NCBI GenBank assembly: GCA_008632985.1
Contig: QPGO01000164.1
Coordinates: forward strand, 62,001 to 126,000
DNA from: Psammoneis japonica
Lineage: Eukaryota
Direction: 5' to 3'
DNA: 64,000 nt
Shown: positions 8,640 to 64,000 of the stretch, one piece after another
Position numbering within the stretch: position 1 is the stretch's first letter
How the letters are laid out: each line of letters starts with the position of its first letter
Notes under the pieces: generated by a model
What the model was told of the DNA's origin: nothing
What the model saw: only the letters and a program-made list of their open reading frames with translations
Database searches by the model: none
Made by a program: the position numbers and the translations under genes

Positions 8640-10750
8640 ACCACCATCAAGTCAACAAGATGTGTGTGATCTGAGCAAGTCTGCACAGCAGCTCCAGTGC
8701 TGACTGCTGTCATGGGGCAAATGTGTGACAATGTGTGCTCAAGCAACAAAAAATCTGTTGCTTGCTGGTTGTGGTTTTCACACCAGTCAGCATCATTTTT
8801 TCACTGTTGCTGTGTTGTGTTGTGAGGAAATGCCGTCAAAACAGGTGTGCAAAAATGGCAACACCAGCACTTTCAACAAAACCTTGCATTTGACACCCCC
8901 TCTGCAGTGACCCTTGCACCCAAGTTGATCAAACACTGCAAGTGATGCCCAGCATTCACCTTCAATGCCAAGGAATGTGATGCACCCAAGAAGATGGCAC
9001 AATTCTGGTGCTTCTTTTTTCCATGCTGAGTGGGGCTGCGCTGGATTTTTGTCTTCCAACACTTTGTTGGAGTTGACAGCAATGAAAAGACTGCAAAACT
9101 TGTGTTCAAAGTTTTGGTGGCACAAAAAACAGTGGTGGCAAATGAGCTTGGTTTTGTGCTTGACTCTCCAACCCAGGTGACTTGGGAGAGGCACTTGTGT
9201 GGGTGGTTGTTGATGCCAGTGCCAAGGAAGAGGCAGTGCAAGAAATGTGCAAAGTTGTTGCCCTGTGATGTGGAGGAATGAAAAAAGTGGATCACATTGT
9301 TGTTCAGAAGTCATGGTCCCACAGGCCCAGGCACGTGGGATCTTTGTCATTGATGGATGCACTGTGTCAATTCCTGGTGTCAACAAGTTCCCACGTTCAA
9401 ACCATCTTCAATGAACAGATTTCCCAGCAGGGGCAGAGGTGTTGTGCTGTTGATGAAGATCTTTGGCATGAGCCATGTTCAGCAACTTTTTCACTTGCAG
9501 TGCTGGCTCTCTCTAATCTGCTTTGCACTTGTGAATGAAACCTTTGGTGTTTTCTTGTGCCAGACCAAGCAATGTTCATGATGACAGAGAAAAAAACAAC
9601 TCTTGTCACTGCATTCACTGTGGTGGGACATGGCATGATGTGCACATTTGTTTTCCCACATTTTTGCCACACCAAACAAAAAGCTGCGGGGATGTTTCAA
9701 ACCAGCTTGCAATCCATCAGCACAGATGCTCACAAAATGAAAAACTCAGCACAAATTTTTATGGTGTTCACAGCATGCATGGTGGCATGCTCTTGTGAAG
9801 ATTTGTTCCAGAGTGCACACATTCTGACATGGACTCACACAAAACCTTTGGCAATGTGGCAATTTCAGCAAAAAATTGGGCTAGTCTGTGCCGACTGTGC
9901 CCCCCCCCCTCAAGTTGTTGCTGTGTGCACTCCACATGGCCATTGGTGTGGCACATTGGCGTGCATGCATGCATGCACGCAGAGTTTCTTGGGCCATGTG
10001 GCCAGGCTGTGGGGGCCCGTCATGTCCAAAGAGCGACGAGGCGTGCCTTTCTGACATGTGCAGAGAGAGTGGAAGCCACACAAACATTTCTTTCATGGGT
10101 GCAGCTCTCAGAGTTTCATTCTGGTGTGCAAGCAAAAATTCAATGATGTCTTTCTGCACGCAAAAGTTTTTCTCACACATCACATGCACACGTGTCACCA
10201 GCTCTCCCACAGGTGATGATGCTGAGGCAATGTGTGTTGTGTGGGAGAGTGTGCGAAAATGAGACCATCTTGACAAGTTCAAAGCAGTGTGGCAATGCTA
10301 AAAATTGTTGTTGTGCAGCACCATGCTGCAAATGGTTGGTCTGTCAATGGACAAAATGAGGTCATGGACTGCTTCACGAGAAGCAAAGCTCTTTTCTGTG
10401 CAAGATCACATGTGCTGGAGCCAGCCAGCACACAGAAATGCTCATTTCCATTTAAGCCATAAATTGTCATGTAATTGGTTGCCAACACCGACTGCTCCAA
10501 CACCAACTGCTCCAATGTGCCAATGCTGGCTGCGCTCCACAATCCCAACGCGAGACTGCGGACTGCGCCGCGCGAACCATCCTCAAAGCTCAAAGCCCAT
10601 GCTTCGCGCGAACGCGCATCGCGTCACTCGTCGTTCGCCGCCGCCAACGCGGCAGAGCCGCCGCCCTCCGCCGCTCACTTTTTGCATCCCCTGATCCCTG
10701 ATGCGATGCGTAGTCCATCACGTTTGCACATCACACATCACCGCATCTCA
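8640..10750. mobile_element. Unclassified hypermutated repeat block (TpA- and CpG-depleted)
   Basis: Abrupt shift to TG/CA-rich sequence with Cys/His-rich ORFs in all frames, the same signature as the identifiable TEs. No family motif recognised. Confidence 0.5.
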
Positions 10751-10764
10751 CAGTGCGAATCAAG

Positions 10765-13024
10765 ATGGGAGTAAATCATCTTCTAGGAACCATGATGAGG
10801 CTTTTCGAATTGTTTCTGATGCTAGCTGTTTTCAATGATGTCTCGTTCGGTTTCTCAGTGGGCCGGATTGCATCTCGTCGGACATGCGGCGCCTTGACAC
10901 CATCCCTTATTCGAGAACAATTTCCAATGTGGGCGGCTGCGAGTGCAGACGAGACGGGAGAAGTCGGGAGTGGTCCCAATTGGATCGAACGGTCCTTCCC
11001 TGTAGACGTCGAAGGAGACGAGGAAATGAATGCCAAAAAGGTGGAAGATTATGATTTGGGCATATCGGGCGTGTCGTTTCAGACCGGACCACTTAGCAAA
11101 CGTATGTTTGACGCCATCATGTCCACCAATAAAAACAAAATGGAAATGTCGGACGAAGTGCGTACGGCCTTTACGCTGTATGCAATGGACTTTACGGCCA
11201 AGGAAGCGACAAAGGCTGCTTTAAAACAAAATGGATTGGAAATGGTGCTAGAAACAGACATGGAGGACGAAGTACGTCATTTTCTTTTTGTTTTCCAATG
11301 TTCCATGTTTATTCCAACATATACCGTCTCATAATTTTATCGTTCTCTGTCACATGGCATTTTTCCAGGGTCTTTGGGGCGATGTGGACTCTATTCAACT
11401 GTTGGATCCTGATACCGAAACACCCGTCGGACCCCTTTATGATACGACTGATGATGCGATCAAGGACTGGACACCAGGACAGGGGTTTAACTTTGTCGTC
11501 AGACAAGTGCCTGCAAAGCTTCGAGAGTTATCCTTGGATGAATTGCTACAAGCGCTTGATCCGGATGGTAAATTACGTGAAGAGGCAAAGGCAAAGGGCA
11601 TGACGCTGCCCGATGAAGACCTGACAAGTCTCTCAGCTTTGGCCAATGATTCTTTGCGCCGTAGTCAGTATATACCTGGCGATAACGAGAGCAAGATGAT
11701 GATGAACCGTTTGCTGGAATTGAAAATAAAAGGGGATACAGCGTCATTTCAATGTCTGACTTGCTAAATGACAATATCAACTCGGATGGAACCGAAAACC
11801 AAAAGAGTAAGTTCGCGATCGAGGCACATGTAGCGCATGGTATACGAACCAACGACTAAAATTTCTTTCCAATCTTGTTTCTCTTTAGCTTTAATGCACG
11901 TAATGGATGCTCTTGTATCGCATGGTGCTCTGGTTGTGGACATTACAGATGGTGGAGCGAACTCTAGCCGCGCACTTGTAATGGCAGAAATGTGGAATGA
12001 GACTGAGAAGCTGTTTCGTTATAGGCAGCGACCCTGAGTATTTGAATACAATGTCGGCCGTTTCAACGGCAGTTGGTAGCACCGGATCGAGTCAAGCAAA
12101 GGTGGGATTTAGTAGCTATGACGAGGAGCAACACAAGTGATCGAAACACGTTTTGAAAGGAAGTCAGAAACAAAGATAGGCCCCGAGGGGATTCAAGATA
12201 TCTTGGGACCAGATGGAGTTTCGAAGCTTCGCGCATCGTTTGATTTGCTGACCGATATTGGAAAGAGCGTAGTACGTATTACCAATGCCGCTAGCAGCAT
12301 GGAAGCAAATGCGTTCGCAATGTCGTCGGTTGAGGATGACGGGGATAGTCCGTCAATATCTGGTTTAGCGTTTCTGTCAGGAGAAGAAGATGAAGATGGC
12401 TCAAAGGAAGCAGCAAAAGCCTCAGAAAGGCATCTCGAATGGTGCAAGAGATTATAGACGACGCGACACCTTTTGGACTCTCGGATTCAGAAGAGCAGAG
12501 TATCTCAAGCATGACTTCCCAAAGCTTTCGCCAATACAAATCCAGCGAGAACAATACAGAAGCAGAACGGATGGGTTTGTTTTCTCCACAAGTGGACTCA
12601 TCTTTCGCGGCTTTGTATCCCGTTGCCGCTGATTCGGAAGAGGAAGTATTTGACGAGGACGTGGATCGCTGGTACAGACCCGCTCTAATGGCACGCCGTC
12701 ACTGGGAGTCGCAACATGAAGATTCACTAGAGGACGGCGCACTTCTTCCATGGCACACACGATATGTGATAGTAATGCCCGGAGAACTTCTGCAGCTAAC
12801 CACAAGGGACGAAGTTCCTGCGGCGGTGCACAGATCGCGAAGCTCAACGACGGCGGATTGCCTCGCCTTGCTGCTCCGGTCTTTCTTCATGGTCGCCCCG
12901 AGTCGAAAATGGATGTTGAAAAATACTTTGGAAGGCCAGATAAAGCTGGTCCTTTGCTGATGATTGTCTGGGAATGACACTGGGGGAGATTTCTGATGCT
13001 ATGCAACCTTCATCTTTTCAATAA
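10765..13024 (+). CDS. Multi-exon, probably plastid-targeted protein with a C-terminal 2OG-Fe(II) oxygenase-like fold; several frameshifts
   Basis: Hydrophobic signal followed by VSFG-FSV. Intron about 11272-11368. C-terminal VDSSF..LYPVA, YVIVMPGELLQLTTRDEVPAAVHR, RLAAPVFL resemble the IPNS-like fold. Reading frame shifts several times; stop at 13022-13024. Confidence 0.55.
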
Positions 13025-13117: not shown

Positions 13118-16100
13118 TGTTGATCTAGGGCCGAACCCTCAGGGTACAACAGAACACTTAACAGTGCACCAACATGTCACAAACACTCCTGAGCAAGGGC
13201 CTTCGAGAGATGTGATTGGTGTGGAGTTGATCACTTGCGCCAACAGTTGCCCTGTCAATGTTGAATGTAGTCACTGCCATGCTCAGATCAACGACTCGTC
13301 CAGAGCAGCACCACTGCGACAAGTTCAACAGCAGTGACAGTGGCGCCACGCACCCGAGATGCTTGGTGCATCATCATTTGGTGTGCAAGTTCTCAAAAGA
13401 GTTCCACAATGCCACCAGAGAGGTGCTGGGAATCTCCCATTTCAGCTGAGCTGTGCTTGGTGGTGCTCCTGCACCTGACCCCATTCCAGCAGTGGTGATG
13501 GTGCTTGTGCCAAGTTTGCTGTGATGGTGGACAGCAAATGATGGGACACAAGGGAATTTCCAATGAGATGACAGCTCCCCACCTTCGTGTCAAAGTGACA
13601 AGCCTCTTGCAGGATCTAAGTCCTGCTCCCCCTTTTTTCACAAATCCAGTCAAAGGAGAGGAAGAAGAAATGGCTGGCAGCTTGCTGTCATCCAAGTTGT
13701 GTCATTTGGGTTGTGAATCTTCACCTTCTTGGAGCACTTGTGAGATGCAAGAACTCTCCACTCTCAAAACACATGTTCAGAGCAGCAGGGATGAGGTCAC
13801 TTGCTTCTGCTGCAGAGTTGCAGAAAATGATGACTGGCTTCCTTGGTTCATTGGGTTCACTTGTGCTGGTTTGAGCTTCTTGGAGCTTGTTGTGTGCAGT
13901 GGCCTTGACATTCAAGCCTGTCTCTTAATGTCATCTCAGCCACTGGGTGTCATCTGTGCTGGCAAATTCTTTGGGCTGGCTGGCAGTCATTTGACTTTGA
14001 CAGAGCAATTGAAGTGCACCAAAGTGACACAACTGGCATGTTGAGATGCACAAAAAAGGGGTGGAGCAAACAGAGAGCAGCTCTGCAAGTCATTTGATTT
14101 CCACACAAAGGAAAGAAGCAAATGACTGAAAATGTGGCACTGGCTGTGTTCACACGGCACAGTTGTTGTCACCTCTTGGCTTGCTCCAAGGTTTCAGTTG
14201 CTTGTGTGTTGTCCAGGCTTTGGAGTGTGCATCCACTGCATGGTGCACCAACTGAGATCTCTGGTGGGCCAGTCCCAGATCAAAATCTCCATTTTTTGCA
14301 GGTGAGCACAGTTGAGACAAGAAACTTTGTCATTTCACACATTTTGAGCATGCCAGCTGACTTGAGCAAACTCAACTTTTAAATTGTGAAAGACCTTGAC
14401 TCTCCAACAAAAACTCAAGAGATTTGGCATCCATGGCAAGAGACGAGAGGCGTGTGGAGGAGCGTGGAGCGGGAGGCGGGCTGACGTCAGTTTGCCTTGC
14501 ACAGACAAGAGGGAACCATGACAGATGGTGCCAACCGAGGGTTGGCAATTTTTCCTTGAAGATTTTAACAGTGTCGCAGGTTGCACGCAAAATGTGCTGA
14601 TTCGAGTGAGTCAAAAAAAGTTGTTTCAACGGAATGTTGTCAGTGGAAGAGGTCATTCCCACTTAGATTTTAGTCATCTTTCATCACTGCACCGTGCGCA
14701 GTGACAGATGTCTCGCAATGCCACCACCGTCACGTGTTTTCTGATGCCGCACTTGAGCGTTTCTAACACAAACTTCTGTGCTCTGTCAGCTGCAACGGCA
14801 TCAAATCCATTGCAACAACTTGCACGTTTTTCGACCTCATCTCCCAAAGATTGCATGGTGCGTGGCACTGATTCTATGTGTGCAAGACTTGGTGCATGTG
14901 AATGCTGATGACAATTGCCCCACGTGTCAGCTGTGGCTTTTCGCCACCACCAACCTTCTCCAAGACTCCAGATGGCCCATTCGTCGTCCCCGTTTGGTCG
15001 TGGACAAGACTGGGTGGTGACCCAGATGTTCAACACTTGTGTGTCAATTTCTGCCAGTCTTCGAAAGCATGCCACCAACGACCCCCGAACCCACGCCTTC
15101 GGCTCCTACAACCAGCCCTCGCCGTGGACATCAATGGGTGCAGAAGGTGTCCACTGCCCTGTCCCCTGCCATGGACAAAACACTGTCAAAATCCACACCC
15201 CAGACAGCCTCTGCTGCCACCCAGCAGGGAGCCACACCATTCTGCCGCAGACGTGCGTGGGCACAGAGACTCTCCAGCCGAGTTTTTACCCCTGCCCATG
15301 CTGCCACTCTGCCGGCACCCACTTCACCAGCTGTTTCTTGCTCCCCATGTGAGAACAAAGAGACTGACCCACTGGCTGTTCTCAGGAAAGCTCTTTGCAA
15401 GATTGACCAACTGGTGGAATCCAACAAAGCTGGTGTTGCTGTTGACCGAGTGGCCATCGATGGCATCATGCAAAAGGCGCTTGACAACGTTGACTTTCCG
15501 TCCCTCGATGCTTCACAAGCTCTGGAACATTTCCAGCTCAAGTTGAGGTGCCATCGTCACATGTTGTCTTTGCACTGGAGCATTTGGCCAGAATTCTTTG
15601 ACGGTGCAAGGAAGTCCTCAATCCAGGACTCCGTTGTTGAACCTTGCTCATGCTCTGCCGATGCCACATGCCACCCATTGTGGGGGGGTGCTGCTCCACC
15701 GCGAGATTCGTTCAAGCTGGATAAGATCCTCTACAATGATGTTTCAATGGATTGGAATCATCCCGATGAGATCCTCTACGATGATGTTTCAATGGATTGG
15801 AATCATCCCGACCGGCCTCCCAATTGCCAATTGGGTTGGGCCCGTTCTGGCCGCCCCCTGATCGCCGCTCCTGTCGCCATCCTGGCAGGCCTCCTGGTTT
15901 GATACGATGCCACCACCCCGGACGCCCGCCTGGCATCTCAATGATTTGCTCTTTGATCCATCATTGTGAAAGAGTTTTGAAGTTTCAGAGGTTTGCCATG
16001 CTGTGTCATGACGGCTCTTTCCTCTGTGCTGTCTGTTTTCTTTTGACAGCCGCGACTCTTGCCACTGCCTTTTTGCACTAGAACATCTTCAATCCTGTTT

Positions 16101-18269: not shown

Positions 18270-19700
18270 GTATGATGATGGGTTTTTGTTGTCTTCCATG
18301 CGTGGTGTCAGTAATCTTTGTGGACTGTCGGTTGGTCAATGGTCTGGATGGGTGGGGGTCGATTGTGTCGGGTTCGTTCAGTGTCTGCAGAGGGACAGAC
18401 CTGTGCCATCTTCCCACTGGGGTCACCTGGAGCTGATCTGAGAGGCAGGAACGCGGGATCCCCTGAGGCAACGGTGGGTTGCCCTGACTGTGGTGACTCT
18501 CATCCTCGCATTCACGTAGCCGCACACTTCAGAATGTGGCTTTTGCCACTTTTCTGAAAGTTTTGACGCCATCTTGCGGAGCATCGCCTTGGCTTCTTTG
18601 CCGAGAAGCCCGCGTCGCATGACACAACGAATGGTGTGAAGTGACGGTGTTGTTCCAGACATGGCTGAAGGCACTTGCGCTTCTTTTCACGTTCATGGCT
18701 TGCTGGGACTTCTTCTGGTGTTTTGGATGGGTGTGACTTCGCATCCGTGTCGGGGGAGCGAATGTCCATCACCATGTCTGTCCTTCCATCCCAAAATCTC
18801 ATGCCGAGAAGGTCTCCACGATCGCCACCCTTGGACTTGTTGGAGGTGGTGTTTCCTGGGGAACTGTTGGGGGTGCTTGAGCTTCCTGCGCTGTGACCAG
18901 CGGGGTTGATCAGAGGTTTGTCGCATGCGCAGGAAGGCTTGCAAGCCTTGCCCATTGGGCCACCGGGTTGTCACGCACTTCATCATGTCATGAGATGACC
19001 AGGCCACCCTTCTTGCACTGAAGAGCGTGATTCACAGAGAACTTGCATCCACATCCATCACAGCACTCCGGGAGGTTGGGTGGAGTGCTGCCACACCGCA
19101 GACAGAGTGTGCAGCGGAACTTTTGGCATGAGAGTTCCATGCCGCTCAGTGATGAAGGGCATGCTGACAGCCATGCAAGGTTGGGTGGGGTCATGAGGAT
19201 CGTTTTTAGGGTCTCCCCACATGCTTTGACTTTTCTGTTGGCTGCTTCCTGCTTCACTTCGCGTGTGGTGTCTTTGTGGACTGCAGAGGAGAACTGGGAG
19301 TGGCCGTGGAGTGAGTCGATCATGTGGGAGCATGTGAGAGCACTCACTTTACAGTTGTGGGCTGCGGACTCAGTTGGACGAGGGATGGACAGTCCCAAAA
19401 AATTGATTGGGAGGGCGGATGGGGCCATTCTCGGATCATTGTCGGCTGAGGTCTCGCCTGTCAGCACTTGCAGAAAGTTGCACTGCATTGTGCATTCTAC
19501 ATTGGTGAACGATTTGCCACAGTCCTTTGCTGCCCATTGGACATGTTGCCGTGTGGGGACTCCTGCAGACCTGCGCAGGCGTTCTGAGGGTGGTGAGTCG
19601 CGATCTTGGCGAGTCCTTGGATGACCGAGGTTCACGACTCGGCTTTTTCCACCAGCCAACGGTCATGTGCATCCGTCTCACCGACGAAGCCTCCGAGGTA
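18270..19700 (-). mobile_element. 3' fragment of a CRE-like (restriction-like endonuclease) non-LTR retrotransposon, degenerate
   Basis: CDGCGCKFSVNHALQCKKGGLVIS zinc finger, RGDLL..FW....VMDIR..DTDAKS, HEREKKRKCLQPCLEQHRHFTPFVVS, LSEKWQKPHSEVCGYVNARM, terminal QWEDG.GL; frameshifted. Confidence 0.85.
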
Positions 19701-25730: not shown

Positions 25731-25748
25731 TTTGTCTTTTGGTGTGTT

Positions 25749-50055: not shown

Positions 50056-52602
50056 ATGGACCGCCACCCAGAAGACAAAGAGAAAAGGGCATACATTCAT
50101 TCTACTAGAGCTTCGGCCAGGAGGTGGTATGACGAAGATGACGACGATTTTGCATCGCTGCAGCCTCCAACCCGGATGCAAGACCAAAACTCATGCCAGG
50201 TTCTCATCGATGATGGAAAACTGCCACCAGCAACAAGGCGCGGACACCGTCGCACAAGCGATGGAGAGGAGCTTCGAGAAGAAACTGTTGTGGAAGATCC
50301 AAGAAGAAGCGATGCCGTCGCCAGCAGCAGCATAGCTCCGACAGGCACAGGGGCTTTTGCCATCCGTGGCAGTCAGGTCCGCCATCGGTCTTCTCCTGGG
50401 ACTCATCATGATGAGGAGACTCTTTTTTCCGATGCGCCAACCGTCGCCACGCCACCACCTCCGCCGGCGCCAGATGAAAGGACCGTACTCGTTGAAGCTG
50501 AGATTGCACAAGAAGATGCTGATGTACGAGCACGAATGGACTATCTCGAAGCACAAAATGAACGCATGCAAGCGCAGATGGAACGCCTTCGATTGGCGGA
50601 GGTTGCGGAAGTTGTGCCCATTGGCGGTTTGCCTTTTGATGGAGAGGAAGATGGCATGGTGGACAATGAAGAGCCTCGGCAACAACAGCAAAATGAAGAG
50701 GAGGAAGTGCTCGCTTCGGATGTTGACAATGGCGGAAGCAAGAAGCGCAACCGTTTAATTGCTTTAGGAGTATTCGCACTGGTAGTGATTGCCTTGGCGG
50801 TGTCAATTCCACTTGCTGTCTCCAATTCTACAGGCGCTAGCAGCGGAAACAACGCAAGTCCCAATTTGCCTCCAACCGAGCCTGCTTCGCCTCCTTCAAC
50901 ATCAACTCCAAGCCCAACTCCTCAATCTACTTCACCGCCGGCAGCTTTGCCTCCGACGTCAACTCCAAGCCCAACTCCCCAATCTACTCCGCCGCCGACT
51001 CCACCACCAACTCCTCGAAGGTTTGAATTCTTAACGGTACCTCGGCAGAGGTTCGCTGTGGCAGGCGGACCGGTGGGTGACAGCAATGCCGTGACCATTT
51101 CTCCCGATAGTGCGGTACTTTACGTCACTCGTGCCGATGGTACTCTGGATGGACTCAACCCAGAGACGGGTGAGTCTCTTACTGGATTCCCAATCAGCCC
51201 CGGATCCTTCACCGGTGCAGCCTCGCACTCTTGTAACAGTGGGGTTTTCATTCACGATGGTTCGGCTGGCGCAAATGCCTTCGTTGTCTACTCTGTCATC
51301 ACGGGCGAGGGAAACACGTAAGTGGATTTGTGCTCGCGTGACGATGCTGTTATTATTGTTGTTATTGCTGCGTCTAGTCCTGAATATGTGGTTGTGTGGT
51401 ACATGCGAGTGGCCGGGTCATTGGCTTTGTCTTTGCGTATGAGAGCCAATGCGTTGTCTGTCGTGATTCGTGGTTCCTTCATCGTACTCTTTCGAACGTG
51501 ATATGATGGCGATCGTGCCAAGTGACGACCTGAGTCATGCATGGGTCACCCGTTATGCATGTTTCTAGCCATTTCACTGCCTCATGAATTGGCGATCTAT
51601 ACTTTTCTACGCAGATTCACCGCGGCGATCTCGCACCCGGATGGTGCCCTTCTTTGGGCCACTGAAGTCCCTGGAATCTCTGAAGGTACTCCTGTCATCG
51701 CAGCTCTTGGTGACTTTGTGTACTTGACTCACAACCAAGGCGCGGTCGGATCTTTTACTATCCTTGATGCTACAAACGGCGGTGCAATCTTTTACACCGA
51801 GGAGAACCTCAACGGTACGTTTGCGTACACCGCCCCAGCCATTTACCACAACCCCGCGTATGGCAACTACATTGGTGGCTTTGATCCTACTCCCAACAAC
51901 CCTCAGGGCTTGGACAACACGAACGACATTCTCGCCTGGTCAGCCACGGTCATTCCATTTGACAGTGGAAGAGGCCAGACCTTTGCCTTTCAGCTTCCAA
52001 CCAACTTTATCACCGGGGACGACAGCACCGGTTTTGCGGTCAAGTACCTTAGTGGAACTGGTTGGCTCTCGAGAAACCCACCCGCCATTGCCGTCGATGG
52101 TCTTCGCCAATACTACGGAATCTCGCGTAATTCCCTCAGATGCTATATCCCCACCGCTACGCTTCGTGGACGTTGGGATGAAGCTGCCATTGGAACAAGC
52201 AACGAGCCGTATGGCCGTGGCAACCCGAGGTTCAACGATCCTCCCAATACCCCGACTGTGAACGAAGCTGGCAGTGAGCTCTACCTTGGCTTTGCAAGTC
52301 CTGTCTTTGCCTCCCTCGTCGCCGATGTCCCAGGCTTGGACGAGAGGTGGAGTAAGAATTTGGGCTCGATCGTTAATACCAGAGCCGTGCTTGCTCAAGA
52401 CGAGAGCGCAGTCTACTTTGCCGAGTCTGACCCTGCCGTTATCCACTCCACCAAGACGGCCGACGGAACAGACTACTTTGCGGCACCACTTGCTGGAGAT
52501 GGTGCCATTGTGACTGCCGAGATGTCACTTAGCCCAGATGGAACAACTCTCTATTTCGCCGAAAACTCGGGCACGGTGTACGGCTGGACAGTTTTTAACT
52601 GA
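50056..52602 (+). CDS. Type II membrane protein with Pro/Thr stalk and PQQ-like beta-propeller (paralogue B)
   Basis: Colinear with 40212-42404 on the opposite strand, same intron position (about 51318-51614), shared C-terminus GTVYGWTVFN. Confidence 0.75.
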
Positions 52603-53272
52603 TTCGCGGAAGGGTGAATGCAACAACCATTGGTGCCATTCTCTTTCTTATATTTGCATCTTGAGGCGTTTTTAAGCTACCAGTTGCTGTGTCCGTAAAA
52701 TAATGCACACTTATTGTACGAAGATACTTTGCAAGTTTCAAAATGCACTGCGCAATTGATTCTGTCCTTCGTTCCCAACAAAGTGCTACACTCCGATGTA
52801 GGGTCTCGAAGTGATCGCCATCAGGTTCAGCCATTAACAGCAGAGACAATCGCCCACTTTCAGCATAACGCATGCGTCATATAAATCTATACCGGTATGC
52901 GTTTGACGCGGTCGAATCTCATGCATGGAAAACCACAGAAAACCTTGATGGTTCTTTGTTTTGCGCGTCTGCGCTGTCATGTACGTGCAACCGCCGACAG
53001 GTCGTCATACAAACATTGTTGGGCTCTGTAGCTGGGAGCGATCTTGGTGTGTTGATCCGAAGAATGCCAAGTTTGAAACCTGTTGAAAGTTAAGATTGCG
53101 AATTTCGCAACCTAGCTGTGTTCAGCTCTTATGTGTACAGAAGAGGATATAAGCCAGATATTAGTTTGGACAATGCACACAGATCACAGTAAAGCGATAG
53201 CATGAGTAGTGTAGTCGTACCGTAGATTGCCGCCGAATTGTCCGTTTAGAATTATCTGCTTTCGTGCTTATT

Positions 53273-54253: not shown

Positions 54254-54728
54254 CTTGCGTTTTTTTTTTTTTCAAAGTCTTTGACAACGCGGACAGGGAC
54301 GATGTTGGCGTCGCCGCTTTTGCAGAGCGTTGCAATGTGTGCCATGGGGGTGATGACCCTGTGCATCGAAATCGAAACCGCAAGTCCTCCCATCAGGTCG
54401 CGGATTTCAGTCCCGAGTACAGTATGGTAATTGACTTCTTGTCTCGCGCACGTAGTGCGCGGTTATTAGACTGTGTAGGTGTGTGTACGTGTGTGAGGTG
54501 TAAGTAGAATATACGTAGAATTACTGCTGAGTGAGTTGACATGCGGTGGATTTTCCGCCGGTACACAATCTACGTGGTCTACTTGGAAGATAAATTTATG
54601 TTTATCTCCGATGCTTTTACACATCATTAAAATTGCTTCTGTCTTTTAAATGTGTGTGCCGCAATTCAAAAATCTTACAGAACACCCCGAAAGAATTCTG
54701 GAATCTGCACAAAAAAATTTCTATTTAA

Positions 54729-55261
54729 CACGGGATCCGTGGATGCACCAGGGGAATCTGCGAAATGCGGGATGAAAGGGGAAAGGGGCAAATGTGAATG
54801 GTGGAAAAGTGACATGCTGTTGTTTTACCTTGAGGGACCCTTTGGTCAGCCAAACACGCTCATTGCTGATTTGACCCTCGCAGGTCCGTCCTTTCGGGGG
54901 TCGTGAAATTGTAGAGCAGACGCGGTCTCGAGAAATAATTTTGCACATTGTGTGTTTGACCATTGGCATCATGTAAATCTGAAAACGACACACACAAAAA
55001 ACGCGCATGCACGTTTTTCAACTTTGCATGACCTTCATAGCCAAATGTGTCATGTGACGATTGATCCTCAAGACGCGTCCCGTCACAACATTTTGACACC
55101 CCCCACAAGACGGACCTGTGATGGTCAGATGACAAGTGTGCGTGTTCGGCTCACCAAAGGGACCCTTGGGGCACAACAACAGCCCCTTGCTTTCCTGACA
55201 TTCCCATTTGCCCCTTTCCCCTTTCATCCCGCAATTCCCGGGTGCACCCGTGGATCCCGTG
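54729..55261. mobile_element. piggyBac-like MITE with long imperfect TIRs
   Basis: Ends CACGGGATCC...GGATCCCGTG with inverted similarity over more than 150 bp. Flanks are TTAA (54725-54728) and TCAA (55262-55265). Absent from unit 2 (empty site TTGA at 61982-61985). Confidence 0.85.
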
Positions 55262-55577
55262 TCAACGGTCCGAACAGGTTTCTCAAAATGACTTCAGATT
55301 AACCACAGTGAAACATCCACTGTTGCCAAAACACAGTGACTGTCGGATGAACAGATCCCGTGTTCTTCGCTCGCAAACAACACAACAACGCACAACAACA
55401 CCATGGCGAGAAACGCGAACGCCATCCCCTCATCTACAAGCTGGAAATGCAAGATGCTGTTGAAGCGGTTGGACAATGTGTGTGTGCTGTTTTCATGGGT
55501 CAAGTTGGGTTTCTTCTCGCTGCTTGTTGTTGCGTCATTTTACAACATTTTGACCCACGCCGTGTTCTTTGCTTTGT

Positions 55578-58500
55578 TGTGGCTGTTCGCCACCAACGCT
55601 GCTGGGGGGTGCGTCCCACTGTAGTTGGGAGGCGGCAGTTGGTGGTGTCAGCGCTTTGCTGGGGTTTCTTGCCCTGACGGGTTCCAGTCCCAGGTGGGAC
55701 TCCATGTGACATTGGGCCTGTAGAATTCTGCATGCGAGCTCTGCAGTGAATTTGCACTGCAATGAAAATGTGAATGATCGCCAACAGAAAAAGAGGCAAT
55801 TTTACGAACATGTCTCCTCCTTCATGCTTGGAGCACATCATTGACAGTTTGCCCGGGTGTGTTCTTCAGACATTGAAGAATGCACCCAGCGCATTTTCAC
55901 TCTCATGAATGTTGAAAATAGAAAGCCTTTGGCTTCGCAAAACAGGGAGTGTGAAACAATTTCGTAGAATTTTACACGTGGAAATGTGCGTGCGCGACAT
56001 GCGGCGCGATCCAAAAAACTGTTGATGTCACAGTGCCAATGGGAATCATTCAGCTCTCAGAGTCATTGCGTGGAAGTTGTGCAGAAGAGCACCAGAAATG
56101 TTTGTCATCAGTCTGTCCACCTGTCCGCACTCGAATGTCAACTCCTCGGGAAATCAATTGAAATGTTGTCTGACCAAGGGCATTGCTCTTCACCATCTAA
56201 ATCAAAACACCCTTGGTCAGACAACATTTCAATTGAGTTCCCGAAAAGTCAGTAGCCCCAATCACCCTCTCGTATGACATTGTGCATGTTTCTGCACGAT
56301 TTGGCATTTTTCCTCATGCAAAATGCCAGTTGTGACTCTTGCGACATTTTCGAATGATTCCCATTGAGCAGTGCGAGGTCCCACCTAGAGCTGGAACGCG
56401 TCCCCTCTTTGGGCTCACCAGCAACAGAGACCGCCGGTGCTGGGTGGGAGTGGAGGGTCAAAAAGCCACAACTGCTGCTGCGGCCTCGACAGGTGGCGAT
56501 GAGTTGCAAAGAATGCCACTGGCATTCAGGTTCGTTCAAGGCTGCATGCGGTGGGAGGTGGATGCATCTGTCCTTCCCCCTGCACTGCTGCAATGGCTGT
56601 TCGCCACCAACGCTGCTGGGGGGTGCATCCCACTGCAGTTGGGAGGCAGTGGTTGGTGGTGTCAGCGCTTCACTGGGGTTTCTTGCCCTCTTTGGGCTCA
56701 CCAGCAACAGAGACCGCCTCCAATCCGCCACTCTTGGAGTGCCAACAAGTGAGAAGGGGTTGGGCCAGAAGCGCAGCTGAGGGTGGGCACCGTTGCGAAC
56801 CCATCAGTTGGTGGGTGCTTCGGCTTGATTGATGATGTTTTGTGCCACAGGGGGGACCTCGGAGCCCGGGAGCAACGTGAAGTTGGACCGTCTTTGGAGC
56901 ACGCGCTGTGCAGGCGAGTGATGCGAGGATCCATGGTGCCATGTGGGGTCAAGCGTGGGTCCGGGGCCCCCAGTTGGTGAACGTCTTCGAGCGTGAAGGA
57001 CTTCGTCACGAACATGCGGAGCTGAGATTGGGTTGCCGCTGCGGCTGAGGCGTCCATCCCCAAGGTGACAGGCAAAGACTCGGAGTGTCGGGATTTTGTC
57101 TTGGACACTGGTGAGGAGAGGGTTGTCGACTCCTGATGTCGGACAGGAAAGGTGACCAACATTTGGCCCAGACGGTGTCCGTGGCACGGGCTCGCTCGTC
57201 AGTGACAGCTTCGTGGGCCTTTGCCGTCACAAGGCGGAGATCAGTGAAGAAACGATGTTGGGCGGTGGGAGTGGCATTTGCCAAGGTTTTGTCTGTGGGG
57301 CAAGGCGAGTGAGAGTGGCAAGGAGGTGAGACGGTGCACTGAATTTGCGGGAGCACGTGTTGGCGAGCAGATTTGCTGGCCCAGGTGTGCAATGAAAGTG
57401 GGAGACGTGTCGCAGCTTTCATTGTTGCAGGCTGCCGGTCCGCAGCATGTCGGCGCCGGGGTCGTCGGTGGTGATGGAGCCTTTGCCGCGTCGAGAAATG
57501 GAAGGCATGTTGTCACAGCACGTGTGGACAATGCGTTCTCTGACATTGACAGCGATGCCTGCAACGGATTCTTGCAGAGCCATTCCGGCAAGTTGGAGAT
57601 CAGAGTTTGTTGTTGCACCATCGGGGTTGTCGTCCGAGACAACAGCAGCTTGCAGATCTGGTGGCAGTGGAATTTGCCAGGCGGCAGGAGGGAAGTCGTC
57701 GTGGGGGCCTGGCAACAACACGCCGCCAAAACCTGGTTTGGCTGCGTCGCACGCACCGCAGCAATGCCCGTCGGCGGCAAGGAACAGTTCGGCAAGCCTC
57801 GTTGGATGAGAAGCAATGTCCATTGCCAAGGTGTGCAAGTCTTGGAGTTGGCAGCGAGCATGACGGTTGATTCGAGTGCGGGAGTTGCTCGAGGTGGCTG
57901 GAGAGTGCTGGAGATTGGAGAGCAGGCCAGCGCTGCCAGACACCACCAACAGCATGCTGCGCACTTCGCCCACAAGTTTGTGGCATTGCTTGTTGGACAT
58001 GCGGCGGCATGGAATGGTGTCGGCAAGCATGTCCAGGAGGCGTTGTCGTCGATGTGACGGCAACTGGATTGTCCCTGCTAGCGTGTCAATGAGCCAGCCC
58101 AAAATGACTTTGACAGTTGACCAAGACGCATCACCTTTAAGAAGCTTCTTGAGCGAGATAGTTTCGCGCCGCCAGTGAGCATCGGAAGGTGTGTTGGGCC
58201 GGAAGACTTGGTCGTCAATGTGCAAGAGGCGGCGATGTAACTTGTTGAGGCAAGCTTTCGATCCTTGCGCGGCGCACATCTTGTCGTTGATGTAGACATC
58301 AAAGTGCTCCAACAGTTGGGAGCCTCGCTGGTGTCTGTGACGAAGAGCGGCGGGAGAAGGCAGGCGTGACACACGGCTGGCTGGAGCTGCAGTGGAAGGC
58401 GGCGGCACGTCGATGCGCGGGGCATCGTCGTGGGGTGCTGGAGTGGATGCCGCCTGTTCAAGTGGATGAATCGGAGGGTCCCAGGCTGTGGGATGATGGC

Positions 58501-61500
58501 TGTTTGCCAAATCGACAACAGTTTCCGTTCCCACACAAAAGAACGGTGGACTCTCGGTCCAGCCCATGGGTGGGACGAGAGGCAGCGCTGTCAACGGTTC
58601 CTCGCCCGGGCCCACTGGGAAGGCTGCCCCAAGCTTTGGCATGTCCTGGGGGCAGAGCCCAACACGACAGAAGCCGTCTGAGAGATCGAGCTTAAGCATG
58701 TGCACTGGGCCATGCTTCGGATCAGCTCAAAAGATCTTGCAGAGGGACCTGTCGAGAGCTCGGCCGAATTGCATTGCCTCCGGTGGGGCGTGTTTCACGG
58801 TTTCGTCATTGATCCCGTAGAAACTGTAATCAATGATGGTGCGTGGGTGGCGGTCGCGTTGCGGCACCACGCCCATCGGTGAGACGTGCAGGTGGGGCAA
58901 CTTGCAGGCTTCGCGGTGTGGCAGGACTGTCCAGCATCGCTTCTGGATCATGTCCGCCATGTCAGACTCGAGGAAACCCAGGCACTCGTTGGTGGACGGA
59001 TGGCTTCCGCGCTCTGTGGCCATCCGAACCTGGTCAGGTGTCCAGTCCTCCGTTGAGAACTGGACCGGTGCTCCGTCGGTGCGGAGATCGGAAAGAAGCT
59101 TGGCAGCTGGATGAGGCAACTGCTGAACATTCTCGGCCAGACACGGCTCCCTGCGCAGATGTGCAACGAACTGGCTCCAGCTTGAAGTTGGCAAGAGTTT
59201 GACATGCTCCTCTGCTGACTCACCCAGTCCATTGCTGCGTGGGCACTGCTGGTGCAGATCTGGCAAGTGGGCAGAGGAGGGCTGCAGGCCAGCTCTGGGG
59301 CTGGCCGGCCCCTGTCCTCAGATGGACGCCGCCGGCGCCGGCGCGGGTGCCGGTGCCGGTGCTGGGGCGCCACCTTCTTGAGGGTTGGACACGTGGTCGC
59401 AAACGAAGGCGCTCATTGCCGTCCTTTCTTGCGGTGAGAGGTTCCGGTGGGTGCTGCTGCGCTCACAGTTGGCGAAGCACGCACCCTTTAGATGATGCGA
59501 AAGGCACACTTCGCACGCGGTGCCACTCGGGTCCGTGGTTCGAGGCGCGAAGCGTCGCACCGTGGCCAAACAGATCCCAGCTTGTGCAAAGGCTGCTGGC
59601 CAAGCTCGCACCGGGTTGGAATTTGCAACGGCCGTGCCGGGGTCGCGACGCCCAGTGGCAGCAGCTGGTGCAGAGGTGGTCCCACTGTTGTGGGTGCTGG
59701 TCGAGCTCGTCTGGGGATTGATCGCCCTGTCTGGCTGGCCAAGCAAATGACGGGGCAACTGTGCCAGCAGGGAGAATTGCCCGTGTGGCACCTTGTGCGC
59801 CACTGCGGTGTAGTCGGGCACCCGGGGCACACTGCCTTGCATGAGCCTGCAAAGATGGACCCCCATGAGTGTCTGCACCTTGCAACAAATGCGGGGAAGG
59901 ACGTTTCCTTCGGCCAGAAGGGCTCCTGATTGCTTGAGCAAGTCGACCATGTCCCGCCAGTCGTCCAAGCAGAACTGCTGGAAAGCCACAGCATGTGGAT
60001 GGTCTGAGCCTTGGATGACATCCAAGACTGAGCTGGTGGCTTGGAGCATGCTTCCACAATGGCAAGTGGACGTTGGCAGCGGCACATCCTTGGTGCGGAA
60101 CTCCTCTTGTTCTGCAACGGTGGGTGTCAGGTTGCCTGCCAATGCAAGGTCGTGGCGTTCGGCCCAGACTTGCACAGCAGAACCTTGTCTGGCAAGGAAG
60201 AAGCCACAGGTGAAGGGTGATGCACCGGTGGTTAAGTCATTCACTTGGTGCACATGGGGTGCAACCTTCCCTTGCAACACCATCTCTTGTGGCTCCTTCG
60301 AAACCACAGGTGCCACACGAGACGCCGCGTCGGGTTCTTGGGCACGCGCCTCCAAGGCACAAGCAAAACACAGGCACCGCTTGGCTTTTGTGCTGTTGGC
60401 CCAAGCGTGGCACAGCACGGGCAAGGGTGCATCATCCAGCATGCTCAAAAGCAAGAGCCACACGGGTGTGGTCTGAGGGAAGGCTTCCACCAGAGTTTTG
60501 GGTGCTGCGGCTGCGGCTGCGGCTGCCAAGCGTGTTGCTTCCGCGCGTGCTGCATTGGCTCGGACTGTGTCAGCGAAGGCTGGCACGTGGTCGGTGTCAT
60601 CAACGGCCATTGAATCCAAGGCGGGCAGGTCCTGCAACAACGTGTGCCAACAATGCTCTTGCAGTCTGGCGTCCACCGCCAGTGGCGGCAAGGCTGTGGC
60701 ACGGTCGCCCAGACAATGGACCGGATCTGGATTCGCCGCGGTGTCGGTGGTGAGTGCCGTGCGCAACCAGTCGATGAGAGCACTCAAGTCCCCCACGCGA
60801 CCGTCATTTTGAATTGCTCCTGCTGGTTCCCACCAGGCTTGCAGTGGGGTGAGATCCCGAGTCAGCACGAGATGCAGGCAGGCAAGGGGGGCTTGTGCAA
60901 GATGGCGGATGTAGATGGTGTCGGTTTCCGGGGCGCCATCGGTCTGCGGCGGTGTCAGGTCGTCATCATCCACCAAGGTGCCTTCGAGGGCAGCCATGTT
61001 GGCCACAGCAGGTGCCACTTGAGGGCCCACAATGTCGAACGGAGCGTTGGGCATCTCGAGAATGGCAACAAAATTACCAGGTGGGACGTCTCCATGAAAA
61101 CAAAACACGCGTCCGTCCCACGGCGAGGTCTCCACCGGGTCTCTGATGTGTGCAGAGGGCCGGTGGATGCAGGTGATGCGACAACCTGTGCCTTGCCGCA
61201 CTGGCGCCAAAGGGGCCTTGGGCACCATGTCGCTCGAGTCGATGATGTGCTCGAGCAGCGTGGCGGCCAGGTCGGGAGCAGTGACGGCAGTGTCGTGCCA
61301 ACGGAACAAATTTGCGCACTCCCCACCCAAGTGATCTCCTTGGCTCATCCACTTGTCGTGGCATGTTTTTGGAGGGGCCGGTGGTGCTCCACCGGCGTCC
61401 ACAGGAGGGACAGCAGCCATGAAGGGACAAAGGTTGGTGCATGTCGCTCCCTTTGTCAAAAAGTTGCAACTGCTGCTGCGGCCTCGACAGGCGGCGATGA

Positions 61501-61590
61501 GTTGCAAAGAATGCCACTGGCATTCAGGTTCGTTCAAGGCTGCGCACGGTGGGAGGTGGATGCATCTGTCCTTCCTCCTGCGCTGCCACA
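55578..61590 (-). mobile_element. Ngaro/DIRS-type tyrosine-recombinase retrotransposon, degenerate, with split direct repeats
   Basis: gag 61420-59318 ending CLSHHLKGACFANCERSSTH. RT SPMGVVPQRDRHPRTIIDYS, KLDLSDGF, PMGWTESPP, VYIND. RNase H CDAAKPGFGG, TNSDLQLAG, CDN. YR N-terminal fragment LGAPDPRL. Repeats A1 61457-61590 = A2 56457-56590; B1 56595-56720 = B2 55580-55675 plus 56403-56440. Confidence 0.9.
55676..56402. mobile_element. Non-autonomous TIR element inserted into the Ngaro B2 repeat
   Basis: Imperfect TIRs of about 26 bp (gacgggttccagtcccaggtgggact / ggtcccacctagagctggaacgcgtc). 4-bp TSD CCCT at 55672-55675 and 56403-56406; uninterrupted B1 has a single CCCT. Confidence 0.8.
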
Positions 61591-62586
61591 ACTTCTGCTT
61601 GAGCACAACCAACAGCTCTTCCTGCAGGGTGTGGCCAGTTGCACGGCTGCATCGAACCCAAACGCGCGCGACCAACTGGCCCCACCCCGGCCAACTCATC
61701 TCGCACACGTGTGCGCGGTTGTCAGACTGTGCAGGCGTGCACACGTGTGTGAGGTGCAAGCAGAACATGCACAGAATTGCTGCTGACTGAGTTGACAGGC
61801 GGTGGATTTTCCGCCGGCACACAATCTACAGGCTCTGCAGGGAAGACAAATTTATTTTGGCCCCTGAGGCTTTTAAATGTCATTGAATTTTCTAACGCCT
61901 TTTGTTCACACATGTGCCAATTCAAAAGTCTGACAGAACACCCCGAAAGAACTGTGGAATCTGCACAAAAAAAATTTCTATTTGACGGTCCGAACAAAGT
62001 TGTCGCGAAGCGCTTCTCAAAATGTCTTCCAATTGAACACAGCAAAATGTCTGCTGTTGGCAAAACAGAGTCACTGTGGGCAAAATAGATCCCCGTCCTT
62101 TGCGTGCAATGACAGCGGCACGACAATGCAATGCACAACAACACCATGGCGAGCAATGCAAACACCATTCACTCATCCACCAGCTGGCATTTCCAGACAA
62201 GATCAAAGCTGTTGGACAATGTTCATGTGCTTCATTCCTGGGTCAAGTTGGGTTTCTTCTCATTGCTTGTTGTCGTGTCACTGCTTGCTTTACAACGTCT
62301 TGACCCACGCCATGTTTTTTGCTTTCTTCGCTTCTGCTCCATCGCGTGCGTGCCACAGCTTTTCCTGCAGGGTGTGGCCAGTTGCTCATCACATCAAACC
62401 CAAATGTGCGCGACCAACTGGCCTTGCCCTGGCTAACTCATGCAGCACTGCACTCCCCCGCGCTGACCGCGCTGACCCCCGGCTGACCCAGGGCTGACAC
62501 CGCGTGCAATCCCACAGCGCGCGGCACTGCACGTCAGCAGTGCGGAAAAAATGACCGTGCATTCCATGCAGACCACGAGCTCTGGC

Positions 62587-62712
62587 GCCACCCGAGTGTG
62601 TCACTCGAACTCTGACGTCCGCAAACACTGGAGCGAACCCCAAAGTTCCGCCACCCGAGTGCGTCACTCGAACTCTGACGTCCGCGAACACCGGAGCGAA
62701 CCCCAAAGTTCC
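62587..62712. repeat. 63-bp tandem duplication
   Basis: gccacccgagtg(t/c)gtcactcgaactctgacgtccgc(a/g)aacac(t/c)ggagcgaaccccaaagttcc x2; all three differences are at CpG sites. Confidence 0.85.
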
Positions 62713-62719
62713 GACCATT

Positions 62720-64000
62720 TGCTCACCCGAATCGCTCGCTCTCTCCCCCTCCTCCTCCTCCTCCTCCACACACACACAAAGATGTGACCAACCAAATGCA
62801 AACACCACATCGTGTCGCATCCGGACGACCTGCAATGACTGCTGTCAACATGCCCCACCCAACTTGACAAGCAAATCTCAAAGATGGTGGAGGTGAGTTG
62901 TTGCCATGAACCGTGGCTTCCTTCCTCTTTGGAAACAGGAGGTTTGTTGTTTTGTCTTTGCTTCTCAGCTGTGCTGCTGCACGTGCGTGGCACACCACTG
63001 GTGGTTTTTGGTGTTGGTTTCCACTCAGCTGAGCCCCATTCTCCAGCTCAGCCCACCCACTCAGCTGAGCACAATGATCCCTCATCGGCTCAGCTGAGCC
63101 TTTTGTTGAATTTTTTCTCAGCTGAAGGATTTCACTCACCTGAGATTCTTTCTTCCTTTGTTTGCAGACCCATCTCCACCCCCACCAGGGCGAAGTTCTG
63201 CTGCTTTGGTGTCTCAGCAGAGGACTGCTGAGATTGCCAGTGCTGGGAGACGTGTTGCTGGAGCTCCTCCTCCTGGTGGTGCCTCCACAGCTGCAGCTGT
63301 TGGCGGCGGCAGTGCTGGTGCCAGCGCCGCTGGAGCCCGTGGCAAGGGCAAGCGCAAGGGTGCCAAGGGCCAGAGCCAGCCCAAGAGGCACACAAGGGTG
63401 CACACCAGGCTGCATCTGCCCATGCTTCTTCTGTGGAACCTGGCATCATTCCCTTGCCTCAGGGCGAAAAGGAGCTGTTGCAGCACCTCATTGCTTGCTG
63501 CAAGGAAATTATGGATCTGAAGGTTCCGCCCACTGTTGGGGAAGGCCTGATGCCCAGCAACCCCAAGGCTGCTCACAAAAGTTTTGCTGAAAATTTGGGT
63601 GCTGTTTTTGCCTTCAAGGCGGTGTTTGGATCTGGCCAGAAGGTCCCTGGCAAGGTTTTTGCCACCATGCATGGAACAAACTGTCTGCCTGACCACGTCA
63701 AGAGGCTTCGTTCTGAGGACACTGAGGCCAATTGTGAACATCTCTGTGCCAAGTGTTTCAATGTTTTAGACAAGCACTTTCCCCTGGGACACTCCATGGG
63801 TTTTGGGGCATGGTGGGGCCGACTTCAAGCCGCAATCAAGGAGGACAAATTTTGGGCCCCCGGTGTTCATGGCTGCAATGCACCTGGAAAGGGTTTGCTG
63901 TGTTGCGGATTCCTCATCATTCTTCTCAAGCACCAAGTGGTGAAGGACCGTCAGCACCAGTTGGAGCTGGTTGTAAAACTCTAGGTTGCAGTCTGTAAAA
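62720..64000. mobile_element. Unclassified hypermutated repeat, runs off the window end
   Basis: TpA-depleted, Cys/His-rich ORF remnants such as 63433-63984. No family motif recognised. Confidence 0.4.

Follow-up and report, generated by a model that had tools for sequence, protein, structure and literature searches.

Several systems change mobile or repeated DNA in a context-dependent manner, and they form the background for our analysis of a 64-kb window from the diatom Psammoneis japonica (the whole stretch analyzed, 64,000 nucleotides: positions 62,001 to 126,000 of contig QPGO01000164.1, assembly GCA_008632985.1), in which large blocks almost lack the dinucleotide TA (also written TpA below). 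In repeat-induced point mutation (RIP) of ascomycete fungi, C-to-T changes at CpA create TpA and stop codons, and the process is triggered by duplication, with any duplicate of a few hundred base pairs at more than about 80% identity serving as a target. The window resembles RIP in that transitions within one dinucleotide context riddle repeats in sharp domains and leave genes intact, but the polarity is opposite: TpA is lost, and no new in-frame stop codons can arise. ADAR and APOBEC3 enzymes likewise disable mobile elements by clustered, context-dependent transitions, and ADAR favors a U before the edited A. These enzymes act on RNA or single-stranded cDNA and on one strand, whereas the window carries changes on both strands, spares ApA, and favors a pyrimidine rather than a G on the 3′ side of the target. 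Finally, the decay of 5-methylcytosine (5mC) matches the loss of CG to TG or CA within the window’s blocks, yet it covers the CpG half of the pattern only, is slower and more uneven, and is unable to remove TpA.

The closest described system is the TpA-only hypermutation of the rhizarian alga Bigelowiella natans (Mettrop et al., bioRxiv 10.64898/2026.01.13.699255). In mutation-accumulation lines of this species, 230 of 231 mutations in two integrated viral regions are reported to be A-to-G or T-to-C changes, all at TpA, and they arise in some lines only, at about 1000 times the background rate. The same preprint describes 124 genomic clusters of 1-kb windows that are poor in TpA and rich in CpA plus TpG, together with low-TpA coding sequences that are enriched in reverse transcriptase (RT) and DDE endonuclease domains. 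As the agent, its authors suggest a DNA adenine deaminase resembling ADAT2, on homology only, and they cite natural DNA editing by ADAT2 as reported just for amphioxus and trypanosomes.

An earlier reading of the P. japonica window, here called the original prediction, had proposed a RIP-like process of reversed polarity that removes TpA from repeats, is coupled to CpG loss, and has no described counterpart. The last of these statements is out of date given the B. natans preprint, and the finding is less unprecedented than had been supposed; taken as a whole, the earlier interpretation is partly supported. At the level of sequence, the window displays the features of the B. natans process, which has been described once, in 2026. 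In both cases A-to-G and T-to-C transitions occur at TpA only, both TpG and CpA products arise, depending on the strand, and the changes keep to distinct regions derived from mobile or foreign DNA, next to which the window’s genes are normal. There are also clear differences, as the process was seen directly in the rhizarian, whereas our stramenopile window holds only a footprint. By the figures given in the preprint, the B. natans targets keep many TpA steps (odds of 0.45 in a giant-virus region and 9.2% TpA in a virophage region), whereas the window is saturated, with odds of 0.04-0.09 over 44% of its length. The main B. natans target is described as single-copy, whereas the window’s targets are high-copy repeats. 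Furthermore, the words ‘CpG’, ‘trinucleotide’ and ‘diatom’ do not occur in the main text of the preprint, nor do stramenopiles, and the window adds a preference for TAY over TAR (Y, pyrimidine; R, purine) and a co-located decay of CpG. In our search of the literature, diatoms and other stramenopiles yielded no account of hypermutation directed at TpA; one paper that mentions both diatoms and hypermutation (SPLASH, PMC10370119) proved to be unrelated. From the evidence presented below, we consider it very probable that the window carries a real, directional and TpA-specific hypermutation footprint on the repeat DNA of a diatom-type genome.

Composition of the window and its TA-poor blocks

The window, whose sequence is complete except for a single N at position 349, contains 1494 TA dinucleotides that are very unevenly spread. 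In 1-kb bins, TpA odds are 0.00-0.25 inside the blocks named by the original prediction and 0.4-0.7 in most of the remaining bins (range 0.33-0.98). Nearly all of the 48 TA-free gaps of at least 200 bp fall within the blocks, and the longest extends over 1949 bp (30817-32766). The interval 29341-30100, which had been singled out as devoid of TA, lies within a stretch that is TA-free from 29326 to 30108. A two-state hidden Markov model (HMM) of TA occurrence yielded six TA-poor blocks that sum to 28,309 bp, or 44% of the window, and these agree with the blocks named earlier to within a few hundred bases.

Block 1 (8563-10710), whose borders were also examined, has TpA odds of 0.05, CpG odds of 0.39 and a CA/TG value of 1.89. 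The corresponding TpA and CpG odds are 0.09 and 0.42 for block 2 (13160-16078), 0.06 and 0.62 for block 3 (18313-19698), 0.04 and 0.23 for the 11-kb block 4 (25452-36500), for which contig depth was used in addition to the HMM, and 0.06 and 0.26 for block 5 (38239-40084). Block 6 (55039-63999), which has a GC content of 57% and continues past the end of the window, has values of 0.09 and 0.69. Block by block, TpA odds are therefore uniform at 0.04-0.09, as against 0.55-0.60 in the intervening genic segments, and the depletion of TA that had been noted is confirmed.

When blocks are pooled and compared with the rest of the window, the odds are 0.06 versus 0.58 for TA, 0.46 versus 0.96 for CG, 1.72 versus 1.21 for CA and 1.62 versus 1.17 for TG, and those of the remaining 12 dinucleotides shift by no more than 0.11. 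Measured against normal odds, 843 TA and 960 CG steps are missing from the blocks (-1803 in total), and there is a surplus of 830 CA and 855 TG steps (+1685). The loss of TA plus CG thus roughly offsets the gain of CA plus TG, which agrees with the earlier claim that both losses converge on TG/CA.

The borders of the blocks are sharp, as had been claimed, and the adjacent genes are normal in composition. Outside a block, TA occurs about every 20-40 bp, and then a TA-free gap of 108-324 bp or more begins, such that the borders are resolved to tens of bases and fall at gene edges. Among stop codons on both strands of the 25.4-36.5 kb region there are 24 TAA and 22 TAG, compared to 513 TGA. In 2-kb bins, GC skew and AT skew co-vary and are not opposed, and these bins give no sign of long single-strand tracts, although no formal runs test was made.

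Direction, context and timing of the change

Two copies of a repeat alone cannot separate a change from TA to CA from the reverse, and thus an outgroup of protein families was needed. We used families from other organisms and counted a column as conserved when at least half of the homologues share the residue. Block 6 carries a minus-strand retroelement, recognized from its translation and from homology searches, with two open reading frames (ORFs) located by tblastn: ORF1 (59369-61420) and a divergent RT ORF (56915-59317). In these two ORFs, none of 11 conserved Tyr residues is kept, whereas 280 of all 413 conserved residues are (Fisher p = 2.9e-6). Four of these Tyr positions now hold Cys (TGY) and four hold His (CAY), which are the one-step products of TAY to TGY and of TAY to CAY, and the others hold Trp, Leu and Asp. 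Similarly, the 14 Tyr residues of the nearest RT homologue align to seven Cys, three His, two Tyr, one Glu and one Asp.

The same shift is evident in amino acid composition. ORF1 contains 0.3% Tyr, 3.6% Cys and 4.1% His, compared to 2.6%, 1.4% and 2.6%, respectively, in its homologues of at least 600 amino acids (72 of the 150 listed), for which the minimum Tyr content is 1.5%. The RT homologues are somewhat low in Tyr (median 1.9%), and the lowest value among the 69 RT and 150 ORF1 homologues listed is 0.46%, in a fragment of 436 amino acids. In contrast, A-rich codons that lack TpA are preserved wherever they encode a conserved residue (Lys in 9 of 9 columns, Asn in 6 of 6, Gln in 5 of 5), and because all 20 of these columns are intact, the A-to-G change cannot be a general one. 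Likewise, the odds of AA/TT and AT are unchanged in the blocks (AA is at 1.24, versus 1.15 outside). Read against this outgroup, the direction is from TA to CA or TG, which is the A:T-to-G:C change at TpA that the original prediction had assigned to repeats, and the specificity is for this one dinucleotide.

Copies of these repeats from elsewhere were also compared. None of 78 related metagenome loci is TA-poor, as their TpA odds are 0.35-1.02 versus 0.09 for the window element, although such sampling favors intact copies and does not imply that TA-poor relatives are absent elsewhere. Among the 40 best-supported differences between the window and other copies in a public sequencing run (X1), there are positions where those copies read TA and the window has CA (32785) or TG (34925).

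A repeat pair within the window provides a comparison across a domain border. Copy A (54442-54729), which flanks a sulfotransferase gene on its 5′ side and lies beyond the TA-poor domain, keeps 23 TA (odds of 0.88), and copy A′ (61699-61986), which is 80% identical, resides inside the domain. Twenty TA steps of copy A face a pyrimidine-purine (YpR) step in A′, and these are CA in nine cases, TG in seven and TA in four, with no reverse cases. Between copy A and another repeat copy, B, lies a 550-bp piece in which TpA drops from normal to depleted. This piece is occupied by an inverted repeat (54751-54901 and 55098-55248) with 151-nt arms that are 77% complementary and 196 nt apart, which is possibly a short insert, able to fold into a hairpin, that marks the domain edge.

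Both DNA strands have been hit, as CA and TG outcomes, and likewise Cys and His outcomes, are about equal: sense-strand counts of CA and TG are 254 and 231 in ORF1, and 131 and 106 in the RT ORF. The change also depends on neighboring nucleotides. Frequencies in the blocks relative to those in normal segments are 0.02 for TAT and 0.07 for TAC, compared to 0.14 for TAG and 0.17 for TAA. For longer words, the value is 0 for ATAT (0 occurrences in the blocks versus 174 in normal segments), 0.01 for GTAC and 0.33 for TTAA. These values suggest that the target is best given as the A of 5′-TAY, with TAY hit harder than TAR.

Evidence on timing comes from direct repeats internal to the block 6 element. 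Repeat C (55580-55675) is 93% identical to its partner C′ (56594-56689), and repeat D (56457-56593) is 92% identical to D′ (61455-61591). In a total of 233 bp these pairs carry 18 differences, of which 16 are in YpR steps and two are elsewhere (binomial p = 8e-4), with C/C′ contributing seven of seven and D/D′ nine of 11. The YpR differences include five CA/TG doublets, five exchanges between CG and CA or TG, and one between TA and CA. A doublet of this kind is what remains when a single ancestral TA (or CG) has been hit twice, each time independently. CA/TG exchanges also account for 46 of the 118 adjacent double differences in nine repeat pairs within blocks, as opposed to three of 109 in gene duplicates (p = 2e-12). 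The repeats of long terminal repeat (LTR)-type and DIRS-type elements are identical upon integration. If the internal repeats of this element were also identical at insertion, then the hits post-date integration, and these pairs would place at least some of the change in the time since the element integrated.

The loss of CpG follows a different course. Blocks had been described as mostly poor in CG, and CpG odds are indeed lower in all six (0.23-0.69, versus 0.92-1.02 in normal segments), but the loss is uneven, with odds of 0.23-0.26 in the 25.5-36.5 and 38.2-40.1 kb regions and of 0.62-0.69 in the 18.3-19.7 and 55-64 kb regions. At several sites, conserved Arg codons of the form CGN have changed to TGC, CAG or CAT. 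The young element has TpA odds of 0.09 (about 85% lost) and CpG odds of 0.74 (about a quarter lost). Because the loss of TpA is complete where CpG odds are still 0.69-0.74, the two losses are separable, and thus the proposed coupling between them holds as co-location but not as dependence. We infer that two processes may share one chromatin domain, namely a fast TpA mutator and a slower decay of CpG to TpG or CpA. The latter is most likely due to deamination of 5mC on methylated repeats, and transposons are reported to be methylated in a DNMT5-dependent manner in the diatom Phaeodactylum tricornutum (PMC9998398).

Repeats, retroelement and neighboring genes

The blocks had been taken for transposable elements, and this identity is supported for two of them: block 4 is high-copy and block 6 carries the retroelement. 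When 2420 contigs of run X1 were placed on the 22-42 kb region at 80% likeness, the summed contig depth was 580-6274 over 25.3-35.3 kb, as opposed to about 50-110 (220 in one bin) on the flanking genes, which identifies block 4 as high-copy repeats. The tail of this block (35341-36259) has single-copy contig depth at 80% likeness, yet its TpA and CpG odds are both 0.02, and it is either an old, diverged repeat or a place to which the process is spreading. Block 4 also includes a minus-strand remnant ORF (25752-26675) of a repeat-borne family that lacks a Pfam domain and carries the motif LLPFTVDHLGGLG. Seven homologues of this remnant come from environmental assemblies (best E 2e-31); it contains 0.3% Tyr and 2.9% Cys, and two of its conserved Arg residues are now His (CAT). 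In a Pfam scan of the 175 block ORFs of at least 70 amino acids, none matched a transposon domain, and there were two DUF matches only, at chance level (E 0.005-0.006). No viral genes were recognized in the blocks, and no coding remnants are recognizable in four of the six.

In a tblastn search of the window with 45 family proteins, matches were found only at the two ORFs of the block 6 retroelement, and thus the remaining blocks comprise different repeats. ORF1 belongs to a family of proteins of about 700 amino acids without a Pfam domain (574 matches at E ≤0.001), which has a conserved C-terminal Cys/His motif with the consensus CLSYHLRGxCxxNCxRxxTHR. It sits inside an open frame of 835 codons (59321-61825, minus strand), and a plus-strand open frame of 390 codons (60614-61783) runs opposite. 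For the second ORF, the frame 57422-58726 resembles reverse transcriptase (LDLSDGF-C-R, Y-I-N-D), and the family motif LDLSDGFY appears as LDLSDGFC in the window copy. Here a single frame aligns across 710 codons (57131-59242) with three in-frame stops and no frameshifts. The 69 homologues of this RT family are about 780-800 amino acids long and include a match from Thalassiosira oceanica; they match RVT_1 only below the Pfam cut-off (E 6e-4 to 0.07), and the family profile matches HIV-1 RT at E 0.005.

Retroelements of the DIRS/Ngaro type combine an RT with split direct repeats and a tyrosine recombinase. In the element at 55.6-61.6 kb, the repeat order D′ ... C′D ... C resembles split direct repeats, the RT match is weak, and Pfam scans of block ORFs and of element homologues revealed no tyrosine recombinase. 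We have not filed the element in this family. Elsewhere in block 6, two tandem 63-bp units that are 95% identical are present at 62586-62711.

Ordinary genes account for the long ORFs that separate the blocks, and they code for NmrA-like, class-3 lipase, MFS/ATG22-like and sulfotransferase proteins. The best named relatives of the lipase are from the raphid pennate diatoms Seminavis robusta (47%) and Nitzschia inconspicua (44%), and its best unnamed match is at 74%. On the limited basis of these lipase relatives and of the T. oceanica match in the RT family, the sequence itself points to a diatom-type genome. Two sets of duplicates among these genes bear on the comparison with RIP. Inverted gene-segment duplicates at 40029-42452 and 50005-52782 (75-83% identity, 2.4-2.8 kb, about 7.5 kb apart) have TpA odds of 0.56 and 0.54, respectively, and normal CpG in both arms. 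Moreover, the 3′ part of the lipase gene is duplicated (23953-24568 and 36466-37078; 84% identity overall and 95% over 24226-24568), with TpA odds of 0.56 and 0.58, and the 340-bp stretch at 95% identity is untouched by TpA loss. Unlike the targets of RIP, these gene duplicates have been spared, and for low-copy duplicates the label ‘RIP-like’ is therefore not supported if it is meant to imply that duplication triggers the process. As evidence on the mutator itself, the partial lipase duplicate was set aside as uninformative, as it shows ordinary divergence only.

Some further features of this region can be noted. The 11-kb block 4 lies between the lipase gene and its partial copy, and the MFS/ATG22-like gene (46743-48098) is among the genes enclosed by the inverted duplicate pair. 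A contig from another run (X2), which is catalogued as ‘DNA?’ and behaves like an RNA run, bridges positions 41196 and 41470 and omits the 273 bases between them (41197-41469). The omitted segment ends in CT..AC, which is GT..AG on the minus strand, as expected for a spliced minus-strand transcript. Run X2 has almost no cover at 26003-36674 and is uninformative on expression there.

Competing explanations and a possible repeat defense

Several alternatives to the hypermutation footprint can be weighed against these observations. If a modified base at TpA were misread as C (or as G on the opposite strand) by a long-read basecaller, and if the assembly had been left uncorrected, then the TA-poor blocks would be an artefact, and the only run that contains the sequence has no record of its library type. 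However, contigs built from exact 31-mers of run X1 match TA-poor stretches of 0.9-2.4 kb (24405-25829, 27241-28120, 34835-36840, 36912-39345 and 39374-40237) with 0-1 differences and at single-copy depths of 55-71, a result that noisy reads would presumably be unable to yield. Strand-specific misreads should also cause the strands to disagree and leave a mixture with TA and CG, and instead both are depleted and are balanced by CA plus TG. In addition, other X1 copies carry TA or the alternative outcome at given sites, including CA where the window reads TG at 26056/7, 29547/8 and 33913/4, and we give the artefact almost no credence. It is equally hard to believe that the blocks were TA-free by origin, as from a TA-poor donor, or became so by selection for avoidance of a TA-cutting nuclease or a TA-targeting transposon. 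Mobile elements are known to avoid short words, and the median Tyr content of the RT homologues fits such a view, but conserved Tyr residues have been swapped for their one-step products and the 78 relatives have normal TpA. Moreover, unrelated families across six blocks share the TA-free state, and decayed, non-coding repeats are just as TA-free, with borders at gene edges. The patch repair suggested by the original prediction, wherein a Pol eta-type polymerase with a WA hotspot is triggered at deaminated 5mC as in somatic hypermutation, would account for the co-occurrence of TpA and CpG losses in the same blocks. Yet the WA hotspot of Pol eta entails A-to-G changes at TpA and ApA alike, and ApA has not fallen (see the AA odds above), with Lys (AAR) and Asn (AAY) kept in 15 of 15 columns. 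TpA loss is uniform despite the wide spread of CpG odds among blocks, and the young element has lost most of its TpA but little of its CpG. Pol eta-type repair is contradicted by these results, and we consider it exceedingly improbable.

Two other explanations involve chemistry closer to that of the footprint. Editing before integration, by an ADAR-like or APOBEC-like activity on retroelement RNA or cDNA at UA/TA, would cause copies to arrive already TA-free. At least one block does have a retroelement that is damaged almost only by point changes, and twin repeats may differ if the cDNA is edited, as known from work on APOBEC3G. However, a single-stranded intermediate predicts one outcome, whereas CA and TG, and Cys and His, are about equally represented. 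The TA-poor domains are continuous over unrelated nested repeats and have common, sharp borders at gene edges, and copy A just beyond such a border retains its TA. ADAR prefers a 5′ U or A and a 3′ G, and this does not fit the sparing of AA or the weaker depletion of TAG relative to TAT. Furthermore, the same spectrum is reported for integrated single-copy DNA in B. natans (10.64898/2026.01.13.699255), and we consider pre-integration editing to be distinctly unlikely. The other possibility is a thymine route, wherein TET/JBP-type oxidation generates 5-hydroxymethyl- or 5-formyl-uracil at TpA, which mispairs with G to give T-to-C changes. 5-Substituted uracils cause A:T-to-G:C transitions, and the hydroxymethyluracil of dinoflagellates favors TpA. 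TpA is self-complementary, and a T-to-C change in 5′-RTA is an A-to-G change in 5′-TAY on the opposite strand, so that all our results fit equally well; thymine oxidation and adenine deamination have the same outcome and are indistinguishable from sequence. In the only experimental work on this spectrum, the authors put forward a deaminase, by homology alone (10.64898/2026.01.13.699255), and on balance we regard the thymine route as unlikely, but as an explanation to be kept in mind.

The reading that we favor, a directional and TpA-specific hypermutation of repeats, was most likely made on chromosomal DNA within silenced domains. Several points weigh against it. The evidence consists of a sequence footprint in 64 kb. 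Run X1, whose library type is not on record, is possibly the assembly’s own data, such that the check for artefacts is not fully independent and the confirmation of the letters by reads extends to their reproduction in contigs. The set of 78 loci leans toward unmutated copies, as one of the two search patterns demanded the conserved Tyr and assemblies favor young copies. Outside YpR steps there are 27 differences between A and A′ and 38 between B and B′; with so many, these pairs are old copies rather than twin ends of one insertion, and A/A′ therefore informs on the dependence on position and not on timing. The polarity read from A/A′ depends on parsimony with the protein evidence. Two of the four Tyr-to-His cases follow a pyrimidine, and thus the TAY/RTA rule is not strict. 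The estimate that TpA changes at about 100-1000 times the background rate is a rough one, as it comes from 233 bp in two short repeat pairs with two background differences. Finally, there is a small chance that the RNA and the cDNA were both edited ahead of integration.

With these points in mind, we envisage the following process. The blocks would be silenced DNA composed of high-copy repeats and retroelements, and a locally targeted mutator would convert TpA to CpA or TpG on both strands, with a preference for TAY, almost to completion. The mutator would act on chromosomal DNA inside a chromatin-defined domain. This process and the TpA-only hypermutation of B. natans may well be of one kind. 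Because TAA can change only to TGA or CAA, the conversion of TA to CA or TG makes no new in-frame stop codon. The mutator would thus scramble proteins by missense changes (Tyr to Cys or His, Ile to Thr or Met, Leu to Pro or Ser, Val to Ala) and leave long frames open. The natural substrate of TadA and ADAT2 enzymes is A34 following U33, and the site of bacterial TadA is U-A-C-G, which would suit the T-A-Y target of the window. The TadA-like deaminase suggested by the original prediction is plausible, and our candidate for the enzyme is an ADAT2/TadA-type polynucleotide adenine deaminase with DNA as its substrate, a tentative choice that we rate somewhat short of probable.

If the footprint is what we believe it to be, then it has several consequences. 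TpA-directed hypermutation has so far been the subject of a single report, the 2026 preprint on one rhizarian alga, and a diatom footprint on transposon-type repeats would mean that the process extends beyond a single species and beyond inserts of viral origin. A second lineage would also permit a comparative hunt for deaminase or thymine-modifying genes that are common to footprint-bearing genomes, and the preference for TAY over TAR is one that any candidate enzyme must reproduce. The two losses provide an internal clock, in which the disappearance of TpA from DNA with largely intact CpG implies a fast process.

There are practical consequences for genome annotation as well. The conversion of TA to CA or TG removes TAA and TAG and adds no in-frame stops, and as a result a GC-rich element can hold very long frames on both strands. 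Hypermutated elements that retain such frames (835 codons, with 390 on the opposite strand, in the present case) are likely to be mis-annotated as genes. Repeat copies would quickly diverge by 10-25%, and in genomes of this kind both similarity-based repeat masking and the dating of transposon bursts would go wrong. The base-editing field, too, would have an interest in a natural enzyme able to edit A within double-stranded chromosomal DNA.

More broadly, and as a speculation that we think rather unlikely to hold in every part, diatoms, and perhaps much of the assemblage of stramenopiles, alveolates and Rhizaria (SAR), may possess a defense that operates at the level of DNA. The silencing machinery would recruit a deaminase descended from ADAT2/TadA to repeats, where it would strip both strands of TpA, beginning with TAY, at a rate 100-1000 times that of the background and well before CpG decays, and would inflict missense changes without new stop codons. 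If this is true, a repeat-defense deaminase of SAR organisms would be the mirror image of fungal RIP, and it would constitute a natural DNA adenine base editor.

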